A stretch of DNA of 64,000 nucleotides from Escherichia phage AV111, in sequence record OR352941.1; one strand, given 5' to 3'. The notes beneath the pieces were generated by a model. It had not been told where the DNA came from and ran no database searches. It worked only from the letters and a program-made list of their open reading frames with translations. Shown piece after piece: positions 7,395-40,428 of this stretch. Every line of letters starts with the position of its first letter. The stretch's first letter is position 1. The position numbers and the translations under genes are program-made.

Positions 7395-7595
7395 TTAACC
7401 GAACTTTTTAGCGCCTTTCCAGCCTTCGTACATAACTGCACAAGTCAGTAGTACAGCTTGCTGGCATTCTTTGTATTTGTAAATCCAGAACCAGCGTAAG
7501 AAGTCTTCATCCTCAACGCCGTTGAGTTTCATATTGGCAAAGAATTCGGCACGTTCTTCACGAAGCTTTTGCGATAACATAGATTCAGGATTCAT
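7395..7595 (-). CDS. hypothetical protein
   Basis: 66 aa ORF. Confidence 0.4.
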   Translation of the reverse strand: MNPESMLSQKLREERAEFFANMKLNGVEDEDFLRWFWIYKYKECQQAVLLTCAVMYEGWKGAKKFG

Positions 7596-7733
7596 TTTGT
7601 GTTCCAGGCCCCATTTTCATCGATGAACTTAATCCAGTCATTTACAGACCATTTAGTTGTATCACCCTTTGGATTAACATTTAAAGTATATAATCCCTGC
7701 TTAAAAAGCATTCGTTTGATATTCATAATTTCC

Positions 7734-8027
7734 TCAACTGTAACGATAACATTCGTTAGCTTTACGTTTGGCTTCAGTATGAGAAGTATTATAATCATAC
7801 TCTTCTTTACTGTAAACATCTTTTTTCAACTTATGAACTTCTTTGCGGAGTTGTCGATTCATTTCATTCTTGACTTCAGAATCAACGCCTTTCATACGTT
7901 TCCATTTATCTGAGCGGAAAATGTTTTCAACCATGTCTTTGTGGCTAACACCGTCAGGAGCTTTACGCTTACCAAAATAGTCATAATCGCGAACTTTCAA
8001 ATCTTTACGACGATACGTTTTACCCAT
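7734..8027 (-). CDS. hypothetical basic protein
   Basis: Internal Met (MGKTYRRKDL) chosen to avoid overlap with 8035-8283. Confidence 0.4.
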   Translation of the reverse strand: MGKTYRRKDLKVRDYDYFGKRKAPDGVSHKDMVENIFRSDKWKRMKGVDSEVKNEMNRQLRKEVHKLKKDVYSKEEYDYNTSHTEAKRKANECYRYS

Positions 8028-8034
8028 AAGTACC

Positions 8035-8283
8035 TCAGAGGTTGATTGATACAACGCGTTTGATAAAATTCACTTCACTTACTGAAAGGTCTTTAAGACC
8101 GATTGATTCTAAACGCTGAGTAAGCGTCAACATCGGGATATAATCCCAATGAGTTTTAGTTGCTTGATAAGTACGAACTCCATTAGCAATTTCAACGTTC
8201 AAATCGGAAATGGTAATGAATATCGGACGTTCGTTATTTACATTAAGAGATAGAACAACTTTCTTTGAATCTAAACTAATCAT
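8035..8283 (-). CDS. hypothetical protein
   Basis: 82 aa ORF. Confidence 0.45.
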   Translation of the reverse strand: MISLDSKKVVLSLNVNNERPIFITISDLNVEIANGVRTYQATKTHWDYIPMLTLTQRLESIGLKDLSVSEVNFIKRVVSINL

Positions 8284-23748: not shown

Positions 23749-24051
23749 TTAGATAGATGTAGGCTCTAATTTTATTTTCATGAACTCGGCAAATTGTCTG
23801 GCAGTTTTTATGCCTTGTTCATGACATTCAAATGCATCATCACAGGGACTATTTTTGTAATGCTTTGCCATATACTTATAGAATTTTTCAGAATTCTCGA
23901 CATTTTGAATTTCAAACAAAGTATATACGTTTTTAATCCCTGATTCCATAAAGTTATCAAAATATGGGTCGATATGTGCAATACCAACGATAGGAGTTGT
24001 TGCTGCAAAAAACCCCAGCATCGCTATGACAGCTATCGCTCTTAAGGCCAT
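23749..24051 (-). CDS. rI: lysis-inhibition regulator RI (antiholin)
   Basis: 100 aa; MALRAIAVIAMLGFF signal-anchor then DPYFDNFMESGIKNVY...PCDDAFEC matches recalled T4 RI; sits upstream of tk as in T4. Confidence 0.8.
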   Translation of the reverse strand: MALRAIAVIAMLGFFAATTPIVGIAHIDPYFDNFMESGIKNVYTLFEIQNVENSEKFYKYMAKHYKNSPCDDAFECHEQGIKTARQFAEFMKIKLEPTSI

Positions 24052-24063
24052 ATAGGCCTCCTG

Positions 24064-24276
24064 TTAATTTTGGCCAGTATTTATTTTTCGCCTTTGGACG
24101 GCCTTAACATCTGCGAGGTATTTTTCCAGCTTGCGCTTGCGTGTATAATCAGCTTTAGAACCAGTTTGACGGATATCCTCGTTTAAATGAGAAATAGAAT
24201 GTCCTAATTCTCTTCGGATTTCATCCAATTGGGTTACAGTAAGATTACGAAGTTGTCTTTCGTTTAATTGCTGCAT
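24064..24276 (-). CDS. hypothetical protein (rI.1 position)
   Basis: 70 aa ORF between tk and rI. Confidence 0.45.
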
Positions 24277-24303
24277 ATATACCTCTTGGTTAGATATTAG
24301 TAT

Positions 24304-24885
24304 TTATAACAACCCTGTCAAATCGTTCCAATGCTTCCGGCATAATGACACATATCTATCGGTATCACCAATTTCAATTTGACTGCCATCTGTAATTGGA
24401 AGTCCGTCTTCCGTGACTCTAGCTACCATTGTGGCCTTTTTACCACAATGACAGACACCTTTAAGTTCAACAAGCTTATCGGCAATAGCCATTAATGCTT
24501 GAGAACCTTCAAATAGATTACCTTTAAAATCTGTTCGTAGTCCATATGCCATTACCGGCACATTGTATACGTCAACAATACGACTAAGTTGATACACCTT
24601 TTCAGTAGTTAAGAACTGAGCTTCGTCAACAAATACGCAGTGAATATCCTTTTGTGCTGCAGCCCATTTATAGAATTCAAAGATATCCATGTCTTTTGTA
24701 ATTATATTGGCGTCCTGACGAATACCAATACGAGAGACTATTTCACCTTTTGAATCGCGAGTATCAATAGCCGGTTTAAGAACTAATACACCCATGCCAC
24801 GTTCTTTATAGTTATGTGCGGCAGTAAGTAATGAAGCAGACTTACCAGCGTTCATAGCGGCATAGGTAAAAATTAAACTAGCCAT
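24304..24885 (-). CDS. tk: thymidine kinase
   Basis: 193 aa; P-loop AAMNAGKSASLL and C-terminal Cys cluster typical of TK. Confidence 0.9.
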   Translation of the reverse strand: MASLIFTYAAMNAGKSASLLTAAHNYKERGMGVLVLKPAIDTRDSKGEIVSRIGIRQDANIITKDMDIFEFYKWAAAQKDIHCVFVDEAQFLTTEKVYQLSRIVDVYNVPVMAYGLRTDFKGNLFEGSQALMAIADKLVELKGVCHCGKKATMVARVTEDGLPITDGSQIEIGDTDRYVSLCRKHWNDLTGLL

Positions 24886-24894
24886 AAGAGTCCC

Positions 24895-25077
24895 TTATAG
24901 TGAATTCACGTAGTCAATGAGTTCTTGTTCTTTCCTGTCAAATGATTCCAACAATGCTTGATATTCTTCGTCCGTCAAAGGAGCATATTCATCATACGCA
25001 TTGGTGGCTGCTTGCTCATCCAATAGGTCATGGATAAGTTCAAACAGTTTAGTTTTCTCTTCTTTAGTCAATTTCAT
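24895..25077 (-). CDS. hypothetical acidic protein
   Basis: 60 aa ORF. Confidence 0.4.
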   Translation of the reverse strand: MKLTKEEKTKLFELIHDLLDEQAATNAYDEYAPLTDEEYQALLESFDRKEQELIDYVNSL

Positions 25078-25301
25078 TTAGGTTCACCTTCTTTAACGAA
25101 ATCTGGGTAAGGGTAAAATCCTGAGTAAAACCCTTCACCTTTATGATTGCTACAACCTTTGTTCGAACAGTAACACCAATAATCAAAATCACAAGCCATT
25201 TCGTCATTGCATAAAGCAAAAACTACAGGCCATTCGCATTTTTCGCATTTAGCACCTGTAAGAATTTTTGTTTGACTCATAGCCATGTCACCTTTAAGCA
25301 A
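25074..25301 (-). CDS. Cys-rich small protein
   Basis: 75 aa, about ten Cys. Confidence 0.45.
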   Translation of the reverse strand: MLKGDMAMSQTKILTGAKCEKCEWPVVFALCNDEMACDFDYWCYCSNKGCSNHKGEGFYSGFYPYPDFVKEGEPK

Positions 25302-25504
25302 TATTCTTCTACATGTTGTTTACGGCCTTTCTTATCAATAAAGGTATATTCAACGAATGTTCCGATGTAGTCTTTATCTACATCATGTGGACTATTAATT
25401 GGACATTTAGTACGACAAATGCGTTCCCATTGACGAATAATTACTGCCTTATTCTTTGGATCATATGGATGTGGATAATGTATATTCATAATAACGGTTC
25501 CCAA
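25277..25504 (-). CDS. hypothetical protein
   Basis: 75 aa ORF. Confidence 0.45.
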   Translation of the reverse strand: MGTVIMNIHYPHPYDPKNKAVIIRQWERICRTKCPINSPHDVDKDYIGTFVEYTFIDKKGRKQHVEEYCLKVTWL

Positions 25505-25983
25505 TCAACAATCACAATTTCTAGTTTAGTGGAATACGTATCTAAAATCTCTTCGATGACATCCCAGTTTCCACCGCCAATACCTGCACCAATTCTTGGC
25601 ATATAAATTACAGGCTTTGTTATCTTATTCTTTCCAAATTCATTTAATTCTATTATACAATTCATTAAAGCAGAGTACTCAAAATTAGGTCCCGGCTCAA
25701 ACTGTGTATAAAGATTAAAGCAATAAGCTTTATGGGTCTTAAAATATTTTTCATAAACCGAATAAGTCCCGAGTTTAGACTTGTCTCCGAATTCGGTTTG
25801 AAGTTTATCGGCTTCTAAAATTTTTGGATAAGCCTTTGCTAATTGGCCTGCTACACCGGCGCCCATTGTATGAAAACAATTACACCCATGAGCAATATTA
25901 TTACCTTTAGAAAACAGGGCGACAATATCGCCCTTGATATAGTTTTTAATCACTTGCTGCAAGTCCTCTATTATAAGAGTCAA
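25486..25983 (-). CDS. macro-domain protein (putative ADP-ribose binding / ADP-ribosylhydrolase)
   Basis: 165 aa; Gly-rich motifs HGCNCFHTMGAGVAGQ and MPRIGAGIGGG resemble macro-domain phosphate-binding loops. Confidence 0.55.
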   Translation of the reverse strand: MTLIIEDLQQVIKNYIKGDIVALFSKGNNIAHGCNCFHTMGAGVAGQLAKAYPKILEADKLQTEFGDKSKLGTYSVYEKYFKTHKAYCFNLYTQFEPGPNFEYSALMNCIIELNEFGKNKITKPVIYMPRIGAGIGGGNWDVIEEILDTYSTKLEIVIVDWEPLL

Positions 25984-26293
25984 CTAGACGGTCCACCATA
26001 GAATTGCATGCTGCCTTATCTTTAGGTTCCGCCACCGAGCATTCTAATATTTGCCATTTTTTATAGTATCTTTTAATTAAGGTAGACGCCTTGAACCTAC
26101 TAGACGCCCCATCTTTTTCTCCGTCTTTATACGCGTATAACAATTTTTGTGAAAAATCTACTTTACACTCTTGACTTTTACCACAATAATCAGACGCCGT
26201 TCTGTTTGTATACTCCGTTACATCAGTATATGTAGTATTAGCAAGAGCGTTAAATGAAACCAAGCTAACTATTAAAGCCAACATTTTGGTCAT
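25946..26293 (-). CDS. secreted hypothetical protein (position of T4 vs)
   Basis: 115 aa; N-terminal signal peptide MTKMLALIVSLVSFNALA; identity to Vs not verified. Confidence 0.4.
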   Translation of the reverse strand: MTKMLALIVSLVSFNALANTTYTDVTEYTNRTASDYCGKSQECKVDFSQKLLYAYKDGEKDGASSRFKASTLIKRYYKKWQILECSVAEPKDKAACNSMVDRLVDSYNRGLAASD

Positions 26294-26832
26294 TCTTTTA
26301 TTTCCAGTAGTTTATTTGATTTAAGGTAATTAGCCTTTTCTAGGACTTCAGAAGCATATTTACTTCCGGCACTTGTCTTCCATCCCGCATTATATGAGGA
26401 TATAGCTTTTCTTATATCCCCGTTATGTATATTTAACCAATAAGAAAATTCGATATAAGCCCATCTGGCTGAATTAGACCGCTTAGATAGCATTTTCTTA
26501 ATTTGGGCATCAGTCATATTATAACCAAGCTGGTTAATTCTTGCCCTCATTGTCGGTAGATAATTTTGGAACATTCCATACGCATGGTGACCTTTCTTAT
26601 CTTTAAGATTAATACCGGCAGATGATTCCTGCCATAGTATTGCGGCCATTATGTATCCAAGTCCTTTCTTATGCATATTTTCATGCGTTTTAAATTTTCC
26701 ATCCTTAGAAAACTGTTCCCCAAACTGATAAGCATAATTCAAGTTATCGAGTTGGACATTACTAAAAGTATGCTCGGAGCTATGTGCTGATAATGAAAGA
26801 GCAAATAGACCAGCGAGTAGTGCTTTTCTCAT
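26290..26832 (-). CDS. secreted lytic-transglycosylase-like protein
   Basis: 180 aa; signal peptide then GLGYIMAAILWQESS...YGMFQ resembling SLT/lysozyme-like fold. Confidence 0.5.
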   Translation of the reverse strand: MRKALLAGLFALSLSAHSSEHTFSNVQLDNLNYAYQFGEQFSKDGKFKTHENMHKKGLGYIMAAILWQESSAGINLKDKKGHHAYGMFQNYLPTMRARINQLGYNMTDAQIKKMLSKRSNSARWAYIEFSYWLNIHNGDIRKAISSYNAGWKTSAGSKYASEVLEKANYLKSNKLLEIKE

Positions 26833-26840
26833 GTTTACCT

Positions 26841-27299
26841 CTAGATTTTAATCACTGCTTTAGAAGCTTTTCCTGGTAGTCGTTTACTGTTAATAATAGC
26901 CATTCTGCATTGAAGAGTCTTCATTTTGAATGCTGGATTTTCGCGACAAACTGTAAGTCCTAACCAAAGATTTCCGTCAGTTATTTCTAAACGGCCTGGG
27001 CGATATTCGACACCTTCGACAAAATCTTCATCAACATCTGGACGGGCCGGCATTGATAAAAATTCTGCAACTTCTTTAACATGATTTTTTACTTTACGAA
27101 ATAATTCAAAAACGTAATTCTCATCTATTTCTCTCTGGATGGCACGATCTAAGAGATGTTGAGAATACTTGATATGAAAGCCCGGTAGTCCAAGAGACTT
27201 TGCAGCATCTTTTATACCGGCATTTATTTTGCGGAACTCCGTTTCAAAGATTCGACGGAGTTTATTACGGCGGATAAAAACGTCTGAATTGATAGTCAT
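26841..27299 (-). CDS. regB: RegB site-specific endoribonuclease
   Basis: 152 aa; MTINSDVFIRRNKLRR...QCRMAIINSKRLPGKASKAVIK matches recalled T4 RegB. Confidence 0.9.
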   Translation of the reverse strand: MTINSDVFIRRNKLRRIFETEFRKINAGIKDAAKSLGLPGFHIKYSQHLLDRAIQREIDENYVFELFRKVKNHVKEVAEFLSMPARPDVDEDFVEGVEYRPGRLEITDGNLWLGLTVCRENPAFKMKTLQCRMAIINSKRLPGKASKAVIKI

Positions 27300-27327
27300 T
27301 TTGATTTCTCCTCTAGTTGACAGGTCT

Positions 27328-27355
27328 ATAGTAACACAACTAGAGGAGAAGTAAA
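27328..27355 (-). promoter_or_regulatory. early promoter upstream of regB
   Basis: Minus GTTTACT-N16-TACTAT; 9-bp inverted repeat CTCCTCTAG/CTAGAGGAG pairs spacer with the SD. Confidence 0.5.
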
Positions 27356-27360
27356 CTACT

Positions 27361-27576
27361 TTATTGATAAAATGGAGTTAAAGCCCAAGATTCTTTAGAT
27401 ACCATATTGGCGAAATGCCTCATCTCTTCGATTTGGCGTCGACGCTGGTCAGCATAGTCTTCTTCGCCTTCTTCCTTACAATCTTCAAGGTCTTCTTCAA
27501 GATACTTTAAGTATTCACTACAAATTTTGTTGACCTTTTCTTGAAAGTCCAATAACCCAGTAATAGTAGAAGCCAT
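27361..27576 (-). CDS. hypothetical acidic protein
   Basis: 71 aa ORF. Confidence 0.45.
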   Translation of the reverse strand: MASTITGLLDFQEKVNKICSEYLKYLEEDLEDCKEEGEEDYADQRRRQIEEMRHFANMVSKESWALTPFYQ

Positions 27577-27839
27577 TAGTATTTTTCCTCAGGTCGAAAT
27601 ACTGCACGACATGCCCACATGCTGGCTTCTTTTAGATGTTGCTTAGCATACTTAAGAGCCTGCACTGCATCCATATCTTCTTTGGTTTGTTGCTCTGTTT
27701 CATTTTCTTTCAAGATATATGCTTCTTCAATCAGAGCATCAAACATCAATCCAAGACGGACTTCTGCATCTTTAATAGCGTTCACTTTACCGATTTTATC
27801 GTCGGTATGTGGCTTGTAGCCTTTGATGTCTTCAATCAT
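27576..27839 (-). CDS. hypothetical protein
   Basis: 87 aa ORF, ATGA-type coupling. Confidence 0.45.
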   Translation of the reverse strand: MIEDIKGYKPHTDDKIGKVNAIKDAEVRLGLMFDALIEEAYILKENETEQQTKEDMDAVQALKYAKQHLKEASMWACRAVFRPEEKY

Positions 27840-28069
27840 TTCACTTCCTCGCCGGTTGCGATATCATATTCTACCAAACTAAGTCCGTCGGTCCAACCCT
27901 GAACGGAGATATAAGTGCTAGGATAAACCAGTTCTTTACCGTTCCACTGACCACCGTCCCAACATTCCATAAAGTCCTGTTCGCCTTGACCGTGGAACCA
28001 GTCAACAAACATCTTCAGAGCTTCTTCAGAACCTTCAATAGTCAATTTAGACATATTTTTTCCAGTCAC
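27836..28069 (-). CDS. hypothetical Trp-rich acidic protein
   Basis: 77 aa ORF. Confidence 0.45.
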   Translation of the reverse strand: MTGKNMSKLTIEGSEEALKMFVDWFHGQGEQDFMECWDGGQWNGKELVYPSTYISVQGWTDGLSLVEYDIATGEEVK

Positions 28070-28343
28070 TAATTAATCGCACATCCTGGTCATATGTCAG
28101 GAGGCTACGAGTTATAATACCCTTACATGGTCCAGAAATAAATTCCAAAGTAAAGTAAGGAACCAACTTCATCAAGCGAATACTCGGAGCAGTGCAACGA
28201 AATCTGGACCCAATAAAAGGTCCAGACAAAAACACGTACTCAAAGAAATTTGCTTTATTAAAGATTTCAAAATTCTTTACGAAATCTTCAGACCTAACCT
28301 TTGGAATAAAATAGATTTGGTCAAAAAGCTCTTCATGAGTCAT
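28047..28343 (-). CDS. hypothetical protein
   Basis: 98 aa ORF. Confidence 0.45.
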   Translation of the reverse strand: MTHEELFDQIYFIPKVRSEDFVKNFEIFNKANFFEYVFLSGPFIGSRFRCTAPSIRLMKLVPYFTLEFISGPCKGIITRSLLTYDQDVRLISDWKKYV

Positions 28344-28924
28344 TATTGCATTCCAATCACAAAAAATTGAGGACGAACTGTTCCACCCGTTTTAAAACAA
28401 TGAGCATGACAGCAGTGTTGTACAGTTTTCATATGGATATCGTAAATCTTGTCCATATCAGGAGCTTTAATAGGTTCATCAATTATATACAATACGCGTG
28501 AAAGCGCAAGGCCACGGAATTTAGAACCTTCATTACCGATAAAGCTACGTAATGAATCATGGAAAAGCTGGTAACGAATATCTTCCGCGCTAAAACGAAT
28601 AAAATCATTTTTGATAGAATCGGATGAAATTCTTGCATAAGCAGAGGTATTAGACAGGACAATTACTGTACCTCCGTCATAAATCCAGTTAGCGGCAAAA
28701 TTAGTTACTGCAGTAGATTTACCTGATTGTCGCCCGCCATCCATACGGAGTGTGCAGTATTCTTTGAGCAAGACTTCCATTGGAGGAATATAACAATCGG
28801 TCTTACAAAGTTCTTCTATTCGAGCATCAGAATGGTGGGTAAAAGCATTCATCAGGGATAGATAAGGTCCAGTTAAAAATGTTCTCATATTATTTCTCTT
28901 AAGGTTTGGGCCATTCCGTGGCAC
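28343..28924 (-). CDS. P-loop NTPase, small
   Basis: 193 aa; Walker A DGGRQSGKST, Walker B VLYIIDEP, C-terminal Cys/His cluster. Confidence 0.5.
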   Translation of the reverse strand: MPRNGPNLKRNNMRTFLTGPYLSLMNAFTHHSDARIEELCKTDCYIPPMEVLLKEYCTLRMDGGRQSGKSTAVTNFAANWIYDGGTVIVLSNTSAYARISSDSIKNDFIRFSAEDIRYQLFHDSLRSFIGNEGSKFRGLALSRVLYIIDEPIKAPDMDKIYDIHMKTVQHCCHAHCFKTGGTVRPQFFVIGMQ

Positions 28925-29060
28925 ATGTTAGGTCCTTCGACTCGCTATGTAAACCCATTACCGCATTGCGCTCGACCTTATTACAGGTTGGAAAAGGTAC
29001 ATCACTCAGAGGACTCGACGTTCATAAGGAGAGGTTGCGTTTCCCTTTATTAGGCAAGAA

Positions 29061-29390
29061 TTATACTCGAGGCTTTTGAGCTTGTTTGGTATTGGATTCC
29101 CATGCAGCTTTGGTAATTTTGTTAGCGGCATAACCAAAGGCATTAGATAGAACACCTTTAGAGTTGAATACATCCAATCCAATAAGTACACCGGCTGCGT
29201 TAAATTTAGGAGCAAAGTATGCATTAGTTTTAGAAAGAGCTTTTTTCAATTCAGGGTCTTGAACCAAACCATCAAAAACGCCTTTACTATTTACTTTATA
29301 TGTTACTTTGGGATTTTTACCTTCTTCGATAGCAGCTTTCTGTTCCGCAGATAATGTAACTTCAGTGATAAACTCTTGATACGTTTTCAT
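29061..29390 (-). CDS. internal-protein-like (capsid-targeting leader)
   Basis: 109 aa; N-terminal MKTYQEFITE leader. Confidence 0.6.
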   Translation of the reverse strand: MKTYQEFITEVTLSAEQKAAIEEGKNPKVTYKVNSKGVFDGLVQDPELKKALSKTNAYFAPKFNAAGVLIGLDVFNSKGVLSNAFGYAANKITKAAWESNTKQAQKPRV

Positions 29391-29453
29391 TTTTGTTTCC
29401 TTGTTTATTTTGATAGAGTAATTATACCATATTAATACTTAAGCGTAAACAAT

Positions 29454-29714
29454 TTAAGCTTTACCGCCAGAAATAATTCCGAAGTTGTTAAAATCGTATC
29501 CAATATCGTCAACATCTACTTTAGGGCTTGCTACAACATAAGCAATTTCACTACGTTTTGCATAGGTGTTGATTTCTTTACCATCGCCACCTAAGAAAGA
29601 ATACCCATTACGTTTTAATGAGCCAAAGTCTTCCGCATCACCAATGAAAGCTTTAACTTTAAATTTAGGACCTTTGGCATCTGCTTCAATGATAAATTCT
29701 TGATACATTTTCAT
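29454..29714 (-). CDS. internal-protein-like (capsid-targeting leader)
   Basis: 86 aa; N-terminal MKMYQEFIIE leader. Confidence 0.6.
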   Translation of the reverse strand: MKMYQEFIIEADAKGPKFKVKAFIGDAEDFGSLKRNGYSFLGGDGKEINTYAKRSEIAYVVASPKVDVDDIGYDFNNFGIISGGKA

Positions 29715-39474: not shown

Positions 39475-39550
39475 TGGTGCCTCTAGAAAGATTTGAACTC
39501 TCACCATTAACCTTAGAATGATTATATGCTATCCATTACACTATAGAGGC
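39475..39550 (-). tRNA. tRNA-Arg (anticodon UCU), CCA encoded
   Basis: Hand-folded 76 nt cloverleaf: acceptor GCCUCUA/UAGAGGC, D-stem GUGU/GCAU, anticodon stem UAAUC/GGUUA with loop AUUCUAA, T-arm GAGAG-UUCAAAU-CUUUC. Confidence 0.75.
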
Positions 39551-40201
39551 AATTAAATTATTTACAATATCTTCTTTATAAACTTCAGCATAATGAAGTT
39601 CATATATTTCCCATCCTAATGATTTTATAATATCATGGCGTTCTTTATAATAAGGGGCCAAAATCTTTTTCTTAGGATTGGAGTAATGTTGGTTTCCATT
39701 AACTTCAATAATAATCTTTTTATCTATTAAAGCAATATCCGTGCAATACGCTCGGTTTTTAACCGGTTGGTATTCTTCAATAAATGAAATTCCATTTTCT
39801 ATTAATTTAGATTTCAAAAATTCACAAGGCACAGATTTAAATTTTGTATTTTTCTTCCAAGGATGTTTATCGGGGTTTTCATTCAACCATTTTTTCCGAG
39901 CATTAGATATTTTTATTCTAGCTTCCTCAGAGTGTTCTCTACCTAATGAAGCGGCTGACAATTTTTGTCTAGTCTCTTCCGAAATTACTACAGGAACACC
40001 AGTCTTTTTAGATACAACATACTGGTTTAAATTACCTGAAGCTATACGTGCTTTATTCATTGCTGCAATGGCTGATTTAGAACTTTCTTTATACAATTCC
40101 AATTTAGGGTTGGATTTACACCATCTAGTGTGGTTAGCCATCCATCCTTTAGGTTTATTAGAAATATCAAATTCCATATTACAATGTTTACAAATGCTCA
40201 T
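39536..40201 (-). CDS. homing-endonuclease-like protein: Zn finger + NUMOD3-like repeats + DUF559/Vsr-like PD-(D/E)XK nuclease domain
   Basis: ATG at 40199-40201 (track start is TTG 40207); CKHC...WC; SEETRQKLSAASLG and SEEARIKISNARK; C-terminal IDKKIIIEVNGNQH...ERHDIIKSLGWEI; sits between tRNA genes. Confidence 0.6.
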   Translation of the reverse strand: MSICKHCNMEFDISNKPKGWMANHTRWCKSNPKLELYKESSKSAIAAMNKARIASGNLNQYVVSKKTGVPVVISEETRQKLSAASLGREHSEEARIKISNARKKWLNENPDKHPWKKNTKFKSVPCEFLKSKLIENGISFIEEYQPVKNRAYCTDIALIDKKIIIEVNGNQHYSNPKKKILAPYYKERHDIIKSLGWEIYELHYAEVYKEDIVNNLIASIV

Positions 40202-40275
40202 TACCAATTATCTCCTATAAAATATAGGAGTATTTATTATTTGGATAGAGCACTTAATTTACTTCGTTTAAATTA

Positions 40276-40347
40276 CTGGCGCACTTTGACTCGAACCAAG
40301 ATAAAGGAGTTAACAGCTCCCCGTAATAACCTTTATACGATGCACCA
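40276..40347 (-). tRNA. candidate tRNA-Asn (anticodon GUU), CCA not encoded
   Basis: Hand-folded 72 nt: acceptor UGGUGCA/UGCGCCA (one GU), anticodon stem GGGAG/CUCCU with loop CUGUUAA, T-loop UUCGAGU; one G-A mismatch in T-stem, 3-bp D-stem. Confidence 0.4.
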
Positions 40348-40353
40348 TTTGTT

Positions 40354-40428
40354 TGGTGACCCTGGCTGGTTTCGATCCAGCTACCTATCAGTTATGAGCT
40401 GACAGCTCTCCCATTGAGCTACAGGGCC
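40354..40428 (-). tRNA. tRNA with CAU anticodon (elongator Met or Ile2), CCA encoded
   Basis: Hand-folded 75 nt: acceptor GGCCCUG/CAGGGUC, D-arm GCUC-AAUGGGA-GAGC, anticodon loop CUCAUAA, T-stem GCUGG/CCAGC. Confidence 0.7.

Follow-up and report, generated by a model that had tools for sequence, protein, structure and literature searches.

A minus-strand gene of Escherichia phage AV111, lying within a 64,000-nucleotide stretch of its sequence record (OR352941.1; hereafter the window), encodes a single macrodomain and is, by sequence, the ortholog of tk.4 (adfM) of phage T4. At a probability of roughly three in four, we consider that this ortholog erases the ADP-ribose which the bacterial toxin DarT2 places on thymidine. 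The targets of DarT2 are thymidines in single-stranded phage DNA, whose ADP-ribosylation blocks replication. The initial annotation of the locus had suggested that a phage macrodomain could counter an ADP-ribosylating defence, as DarG does; this is what a DarTG2 screen and a knockout have reported for the T4 gene, and hence the idea was right but not new, the anti-DarTG2 role of tk.4 and the name adfM being already published. What is shown here in addition is the fold and class of the protein, the residues of its active site, its orthology and the purifying selection on the gene.

The macrodomain had been proposed from two glycine-rich stretches, HGCNCFHTMGAGVAGQ and MPRIGAGIGGG, both of which are present in the open reading frame (ORF) at 25486..25983, and the assignment is borne out by profile searches and by a confident structure prediction. 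Pfam PF01661 (Macro) matches at 28.2 bits, above its gathering cutoff of 22 bits, and spans profile positions 2–117 of 118. When the single sequence was searched against solved macrodomains, Bt_1257 (1.8e-10) and Poa1p (1.4e-8) were returned, with weaker matches to SCO6735, TARG1 and DarG. A family profile of 95 members from the protein database, mostly metagenomic and phage-like, matched Bt_1257 (5e-18), TARG1 (2.5e-16), SCO6735 (4.5e-15), Poa1p (1e-13) and Mycobacterium tuberculosis DarG (1.6e-13) in the PDB, with matches extending down to 1.5e-11. The AlphaFold2 model derived from the 95-member alignment (pLDDT 95.8, pTM 0.91) has the three-layer alpha/beta/alpha macro fold and finds human TARG1 as its best Foldseek match (E 3.7e-10); the PADLOC DarG model also matches the protein (E 1.2e-8). 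Both structure and sequence are nearer to the ALC1-like class (TARG1, DarG, SCO6735, Poa1p) than to the MacroD, viral or PARG classes, and the window protein is an ALC1-like macrodomain of one domain. By profile alignment, the two glycine-rich stretches are the two ADP-ribose-binding loops of the macro fold.

The gene on the minus strand is genuine, although its 5' boundary was probably misplaced in the initial annotation, which took the ORF to its TTG start and so to 165 aa. In T4, the codon immediately upstream of the tk.4 ATG is a TAG stop, such that the extra ten codons are not open there, and the homologous codon in the window is the GTG at 25953. The GAGGA motif upstream of this GTG occurs likewise 11 nt upstream of the T4 ATG, and in phage mobillu the annotation of a near-identical gene begins at the homologous GTG and gives 155 aa. 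Because of the upstream stop in T4, the shared GAGGA and the mobillu annotation, we take the coding sequence as given in Table 1, the true start most likely being the GTG. A TTG-initiated protein was rejected as the less likely reading, in view of the T4 stop codon and the 155-aa annotation in close relatives; the ten extra codons arise from the mechanical choice of whichever start comes first after a stop. The first 8 nt of tk.4 are shared with the 3' end of vs, and the TGA of tk.4 runs into the ATG of tk.3 (ATGA), tight junctions that are the usual packing of T4 early regions. Relative to the T4 ortholog, dN/dS is 0.078 at a dS of 1.24, placing the frame under strong purifying selection, and the protein of the T2 ortholog has been seen by proteomics; tk.4 is thus a genuine and well-conserved gene.

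Codons 7–13 of tk.4, some 20 nt past its start, contain a hairpin (25916..25934, minus strand) in which a perfect 8-bp stem closes a loop of 3 nt (AGGGCGA-TAT-TCGCCCT); a T-rich run follows. Most of the stem-loop also occurs in T4. As terminator-like hairpins in the region do not outnumber those expected from shuffled sequence, it may reflect chance or simply result from conservation of the KGDIVAL codons.

Table 1. Positions in the window of tk.4, its sequence elements and its neighbours.
Feature	Position	Strand	Details
tk.4/adfM coding sequence (most likely extent)	25486..25953	-	155 aa, GTG start, TGA stop, single macrodomain
Ten extra codons from TTG start	25954..25983	-	within 3' end of vs; probably untranslated as Tk.4
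GAGGA Shine-Dalgarno	25964..25968	-	10 nt upstream of GTG
Loop 1, H22-G-C-N25-C-F-H-T-M-G-A-G-V-A-G-Q37	25843..25890	-	conserved Asn25 and GxG ADP-ribose-binding loop
Strand end, N80-L-Y-T-Q84	25702..25716	-	from profile alignments
Loop 2, M118-P-R-I-G-A-G-I-G-G-G128	25570..25602	-	diphosphate-binding; from aligned macrodomains
Thymidine kinase	24304..24885	-	same strand as tk.4
tk.3 (DUF7202), downstream neighbour	25277..25489	-	70 aa; Pfam DUF7202 131 bits; T4 annotation
vs (valyl-tRNA synthetase modifier), upstream neighbour	25946..26293	-	115 aa; T4 synteny, mobillu annotation
vs.1 homolog	26290..26832	-	180 aa; SLT-like, apparent N-terminal signal-like sequence

Relatives of Tk.4 were found by tblastn in 2,800 of 50,697 phage records, the match in phage mobillu having 99.4% identity and that in T4, which coincides with the annotated gene Tk.4, 83%. 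Orthology with the T4 gene follows from this identity, which holds across residues 1–155, and from the flanking genes, since the order vs–tk.4–tk.3 is the same in both phages. The two proteins share their start position and all family-invariant residues; they differ at 26 of 155 residues, with no invariant position among them. For instance, loop 2 has GIGGG in the window protein where T4 has GIGKG, and the window gene starts with GTG where that of T4 starts with ATG. Several relatives are labelled ‘macro domain protein’ or ‘Macro domain, Poa1p_like’ in GenBank.

The active site can be read from these alignments. Loop 1 aligns with N22 of DarG, H24 and N27 of SCO6735, N23 of PhiKZ AdfM and loop 1 of TARG1, and its residues H22, G23, N25, C26, G33 and A35 show little or no variation among 95 family members and 80 bacterial relatives. 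Loop 2 aligns with MPRIGCGLAGG in Bt_1257/SCO6735 and with MPRIGCGLDRL in TARG1, where D125 of the human protein becomes G126. The segments MGAGVA and PRIGAGIGGG fall on the loops of TARG1, Poa1p and DarG structures with bound ADP-ribose, and binding of this ligand by Tk.4 is predicted accordingly from sequence. Six residues, His22, Asn25, Asp49, Asn80, Tyr82 and Gln84, are invariant in all 95 family members and all 80 bacterial relatives. The Gln84 column holds the catalytic lysine of TARG1 (K84) and DarG (K80), and Gln85 in SCO6735. SCO6735 removes DarT-made T-ADP-ribose from DNA faster than either DarG or TARG1; the Q85A mutation abolishes its activity, N27S leaves little of it, and its proposed mechanism is water-mediated. 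Since the invariant Asn25/Gln84 pair matches N27/Q85, the chemistry of Tk.4 is most likely that of SCO6735, by analogy, and not the lysine mechanism of DarG and TARG1. The analogy is partial, because Tk.4 has neither the extended mobile loop nor Lys34 of SCO6735.

SCO6735, from Streptomyces coelicolor, and Bt_1257 both hydrolyse ADP-ribose linked to thymidine in DNA. Like Tk.4 they combine glutamine at the catalytic position with a positioning asparagine (Q84 and N25 in Tk.4), and they are stand-alone, single-domain proteins with no adjacent DarT. However, their identity to Tk.4 is only about 26–29%, and their mobile loop, about 5 residues longer than in DarG and TARG1, has an insertion of 4–6 residues relative to the phage family; the gap between Q84 and Y93 is 8 residues in the phage loop and mostly 11 in bacterial relatives. 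The DNA-positioning Lys34 of SCO6735 (in GGWGKG, a stretch found also in Bt_1257) corresponds to Ala32 in Tk.4 (TMGAGV), and D49, invariant in the Tk.4 family, is not shared by SCO6735 or Bt_1257. Among the other members of the class, TARG1 (OARD1), which is also able to remove T-ADP-ribose from DNA, aligns at loops 1 and 2, but its Lys84/Asp125 dyad is replaced by Q84 and G126 in Tk.4 and it lacks an equivalent of Asn25. His23 and Asn26 of Poa1p correspond to H22 and N25, while its S30 is T29 in Tk.4 and it carries serine where the Tk.4 family has Gln84.

DarG shares the conserved asparagine (N22, corresponding to N25) and opposes DarT, as T4 Tk.4 does by genetics. Nevertheless, Tk.4 reaches 31 bits against a cutoff of 250 for the NCBIfam DarG equivalog (NF048014), matching positions 4–146 of 338; the C-terminal DarT-binding domain of DarG is absent from the 155-aa protein, and the catalytic Lys80 (Taq DarG K80) is glutamine. 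Searches by tblastn and phmmer, made with a single query and so of limited sensitivity, detected nothing resembling DarT2 anywhere in the window, nor next to any of its 80 closest bacterial relatives. Tk.4 was accordingly rejected as a DarG on four counts: the equivalog score, the missing C-terminal domain, the missing lysine and the absence of a DarT neighbour in this single-query search.

A second phage protein bears the same name. Gp104 of PhiKZ, ‘AdfM’, is a single macrodomain that counters DarTG2; biochemically it strips DNA of the ADP-ribose placed there by DarT2, and the N23A mutation impairs it (Cell Rep 2026, PMC13309987). Gp104 matches M. tuberculosis DarG at E 9e-25 and has an FPTK motif with the catalytic lysine, that is, it is of DarG type, and its match to the window protein is a local one of 23 residues. 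T4 Tk.4 and PhiKZ gp104 are different macrodomain lineages under a single name, and the independent naming of two non-orthologous macrodomains is likely to cause confusion in annotation. T-even phages possess further anti-DarTG factors in AdfA and AdfN (gp30.3 in T4, NADAR). AdfN, which is encoded outside the window, is an ‘eraser’ enzyme, as is proposed for Tk.4, but of the unrelated NADAR fold; it acts on guanine-ADP-ribose made by DarT1 and gives no protection from DarTG2. ICP1 AdfB was considered as a relative of Tk.4 and rejected, being reported to interact directly with DarT and not being described as a macrodomain.

The published evidence for the role of tk.4 comes from HIDEN-SEQ, a bioRxiv preprint of November 2025, in which a T4 transposon library was passed on DarTG2-expressing E. 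coli and tk.4 was the single significant match; a clean deletion rendered T4 sensitive to DarTG2 (10.1101/2025.11.20.689424). The authors named the gene adfM (anti-DarT factor, macrodomain) and noted its likeness to the macrodomain of M. tuberculosis DarG; removal of ADP-ribose from DNA is their proposal, the evidence being genetic, and among the conditions of the preprint a fitness effect of tk.4 was reported for the DarTG2 host only (10.1101/2025.11.20.689424). An earlier paper had found that T4 lacking both adfA and adfN stays resistant to DarTG2, predicting another factor, and tk.4 fills that gap. The phenotype derives from T4 alone and the window allele is known from its sequence; at 83% identity, it would be expected to behave like that of T4 against DarTG2.

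The following sequence of events would account for these data. Infection releases the bacterial toxin DarT2, which ADP-ribosylates thymidines on single-stranded phage DNA and blocks its replication, as the literature has shown for this toxin. Tk.4 would then bind the ADP-ribose between its two glycine-rich loops, with Q84 locked by N25 against the distal ribose and the chemistry left to a water molecule, probably as in SCO6735; hydrolysis of the bond between ribose and thymine would leave DNA that could be replicated again. We infer the hydrolase activity of Tk.4 on T-ADP-ribose DNA in this sense.

Phage T5 served as the DarTG2-sensitive control in the T4 study (10.1101/2025.11.20.689424). Neither of two macrodomain profiles found a macrodomain in a six-frame translation of T5, the best match reaching 9 bits (E 0.07), while the same two profiles identify exactly one in the window. 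The sensitivity of a phage without a macrodomain is consistent with an anti-DarTG2 role, as a single case. One T5 gene, T5.105 (7588..8094), carries the annotation ‘Sir2 (NAD-dependent deacetylase)’ and has a true Sir2 gene, T5.102, in its vicinity; neither profile identifies T5.105 as a macrodomain, its sequence looks unlike a sirtuin, and the Sir2 annotation is probably wrong.

An alternative to catalysis is that Tk.4 mainly binds and blocks DarT2, or shields ADP-ribosylated DNA, as a stoichiometric mimic of the antitoxin in the manner of ICP1 AdfB, which acts through direct interaction with DarT. We regard this as unlikely, although it has experimental parallels: inhibition of DarT in vitro persists in the dead mutants SCO6735 Q85A, DarG K80A and TARG1 K84A, and is strongest for SCO6735, and the support from T4 tk.4 is genetic, with hydrolysis a proposal. 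As SCO6735 Q85A inhibits DarT by binding, protection by Tk.4 need not be wholly catalytic. However, H22, N25, the GxG, Q84 and loop 2 are kept across phage and bacterial relatives that face no common DarT, and this retention of catalytic-site residues in the absence of a shared toxin favours an enzyme over a toxin-specific binder; nor does Tk.4 have the C-terminal toxin-binding domain found in DarG.

Less probable again is a main role in processing a soluble ADP-ribose derivative, either as a Poa1p-like ADP-ribose-1''-phosphate phosphatase or as an O-acetyl-ADP-ribose deacetylase. The protein matches PHROG 335, ‘phosphatase’, at E 1e-66, related records and JGI names carry the labels ‘phosphatase’, ‘Poa1p_like’ and ‘O-acetyl-ADP-ribose deacetylase’, and H22/N25 have their counterparts in Poa1p H23/N26. 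These labels are, however, putative names transferred by homology, and Poa1p has serine in place of the invariant glutamine at the catalytic position. Furthermore, RNA repair in T4 (Pnk/Rnl) is not known to make ADP-ribose-1''-phosphate, which counts against a phosphatase. The sole known phenotype of T4 tk.4, among the conditions of the preprint, is sensitivity to DarTG2 (10.1101/2025.11.20.689424).

The most improbable alternative, if only slightly more so, is that Tk.4 reverses other ADP-ribosylations, either those made on host proteins by the phage enzymes Alt, ModA and ModB, in line with a suggestion in the initial annotation that the phage might tune its own ADP-ribosylation, or those made on RNA by CmdTAC-type defences. 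SCO6735 and TARG1 do also use protein substrates, and macrodomains reversing RNA ADP-ribosylation exist, to judge from the titles of papers. However, Alt and Mod act on arginine, and the resulting linkage is one for ARH/DraG-type enzymes, macrodomains not being known to cleave it, so that reversal of the phage's own modifications is unlikely. Reversal of CmdT-made RNA modification is unlikely because T4 is strongly restricted by CmdTAC despite carrying tk.4. No fitness defect of tk.4 was reported beyond the DarTG2 condition (10.1101/2025.11.20.689424). Erasure of thymidine ADP-ribose remains our preferred reading.

The genomic setting is that of a T4-like phage. From downstream to upstream, the minus strand encodes thymidine kinase, three small ORFs, tk.4, vs, vs.1 and RegB (Pfam REGB_T4, 231 bits), and these neighbours mark the window as T4-like; megablast matches to 24000–28000 are in T4-like (Tevenvirinae) phages and reach 99.5% identity. 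On this synteny, tk.4 belongs to the minus-strand pre-replicative array regB–vs.1–vs–tk.4–tk.3–tk.2–tk.1–tk. All genes from about 700 to 45,900 lie on the minus strand, and it is this shared orientation, together with T4 synteny, that gives the region its ‘early’ label. Scans of 24000–29500 found 16 promoters (17.7 in shuffled sequence), showing no excess, and 6 terminators (3.7 in shuffled sequence), judged within expectation; with counts at the shuffled level, no transcription unit can be defined from sequence.

Other features of the region may be recorded. The vs.1 homolog has a match to SLT transglycosylase below threshold (18.8 bits against 21.3), and in related records the gene is sometimes called ‘SLT transglycosylase’ and sometimes mislabelled ‘endoribonuclease’. 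An 87-aa ORF (27576..27839, minus strand) matches Pfam Acb2_Tad1_hairpin at 65 bits and occupies the position of T4 vs.4, which we take to be the anti-CBASS nucleotide sponge Acb2; this Acb2-type ORF and tk.4 belong to one minus-strand array, in which the ORF lies upstream at a distance of 1.6 kb, so that two counter-defence genes are close together. ARAGORN finds three tRNA genes only (39475..40428, minus strand), Arg-tct, Asn-gtt and Met-cat, a smaller and different set from the eight tRNAs of T4.

The origin of Tk.4 was considered through its 80 closest bacterial loci, which were fetched with their neighbourhoods. These relatives, from Ruegeria, Desulfobacter, Verrucomicrobia and others, are 36–45% identical to Tk.4 and are stand-alone genes encoding about 155 aa. 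They are flanked by housekeeping genes (hydrolases, a PLP enzyme, a tRNA synthetase, peptidases), and even the commonest neighbour recurs at only 11 of the 80 loci. Stand-alone relatives are widespread in marine and sediment bacteria, Planctomycetes included; H22, N25, D49, N80, Y82 and Q84 are invariant in them, and the loop after Q84 is about three residues longer. A recent origin as an ‘orphan antitoxin’ is disfavoured, given stand-alone genes with neither a shared neighbour nor a DarT2 match in the single-query DarT search. Tk.4 might instead represent a separate, lysine-less lineage (Asn/Gln, water-mediated) that derives from stand-alone bacterial macrodomains and is not a captured DarG, a proposition for which we judge the odds to be even.

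DarTG systems stop phages through ADP-ribosylation of DNA, and eraser genes explain host range and guide the choice of therapeutic phages. With the anti-DarTG2 role of tk.4 already reported, the remaining value of the present analysis is mechanistic, namely a T-even eraser with a predicted SCO6735-like Asn/Gln site and no toxin-binding domain; such an active site would single out N25 and Q84 as informative mutants. If the separate lineage is real, ‘AdfM’ erasers arose in phages on two or more occasions, Tk.4 representing one and the DarG-type gp104 of PhiKZ another. Furthermore, because its target would be the adduct and not the toxin, Tk.4 could then broadly erase thymidine ADP-ribosylation by any DarT2, and possibly other ADP-ribosylations of nucleic acids.
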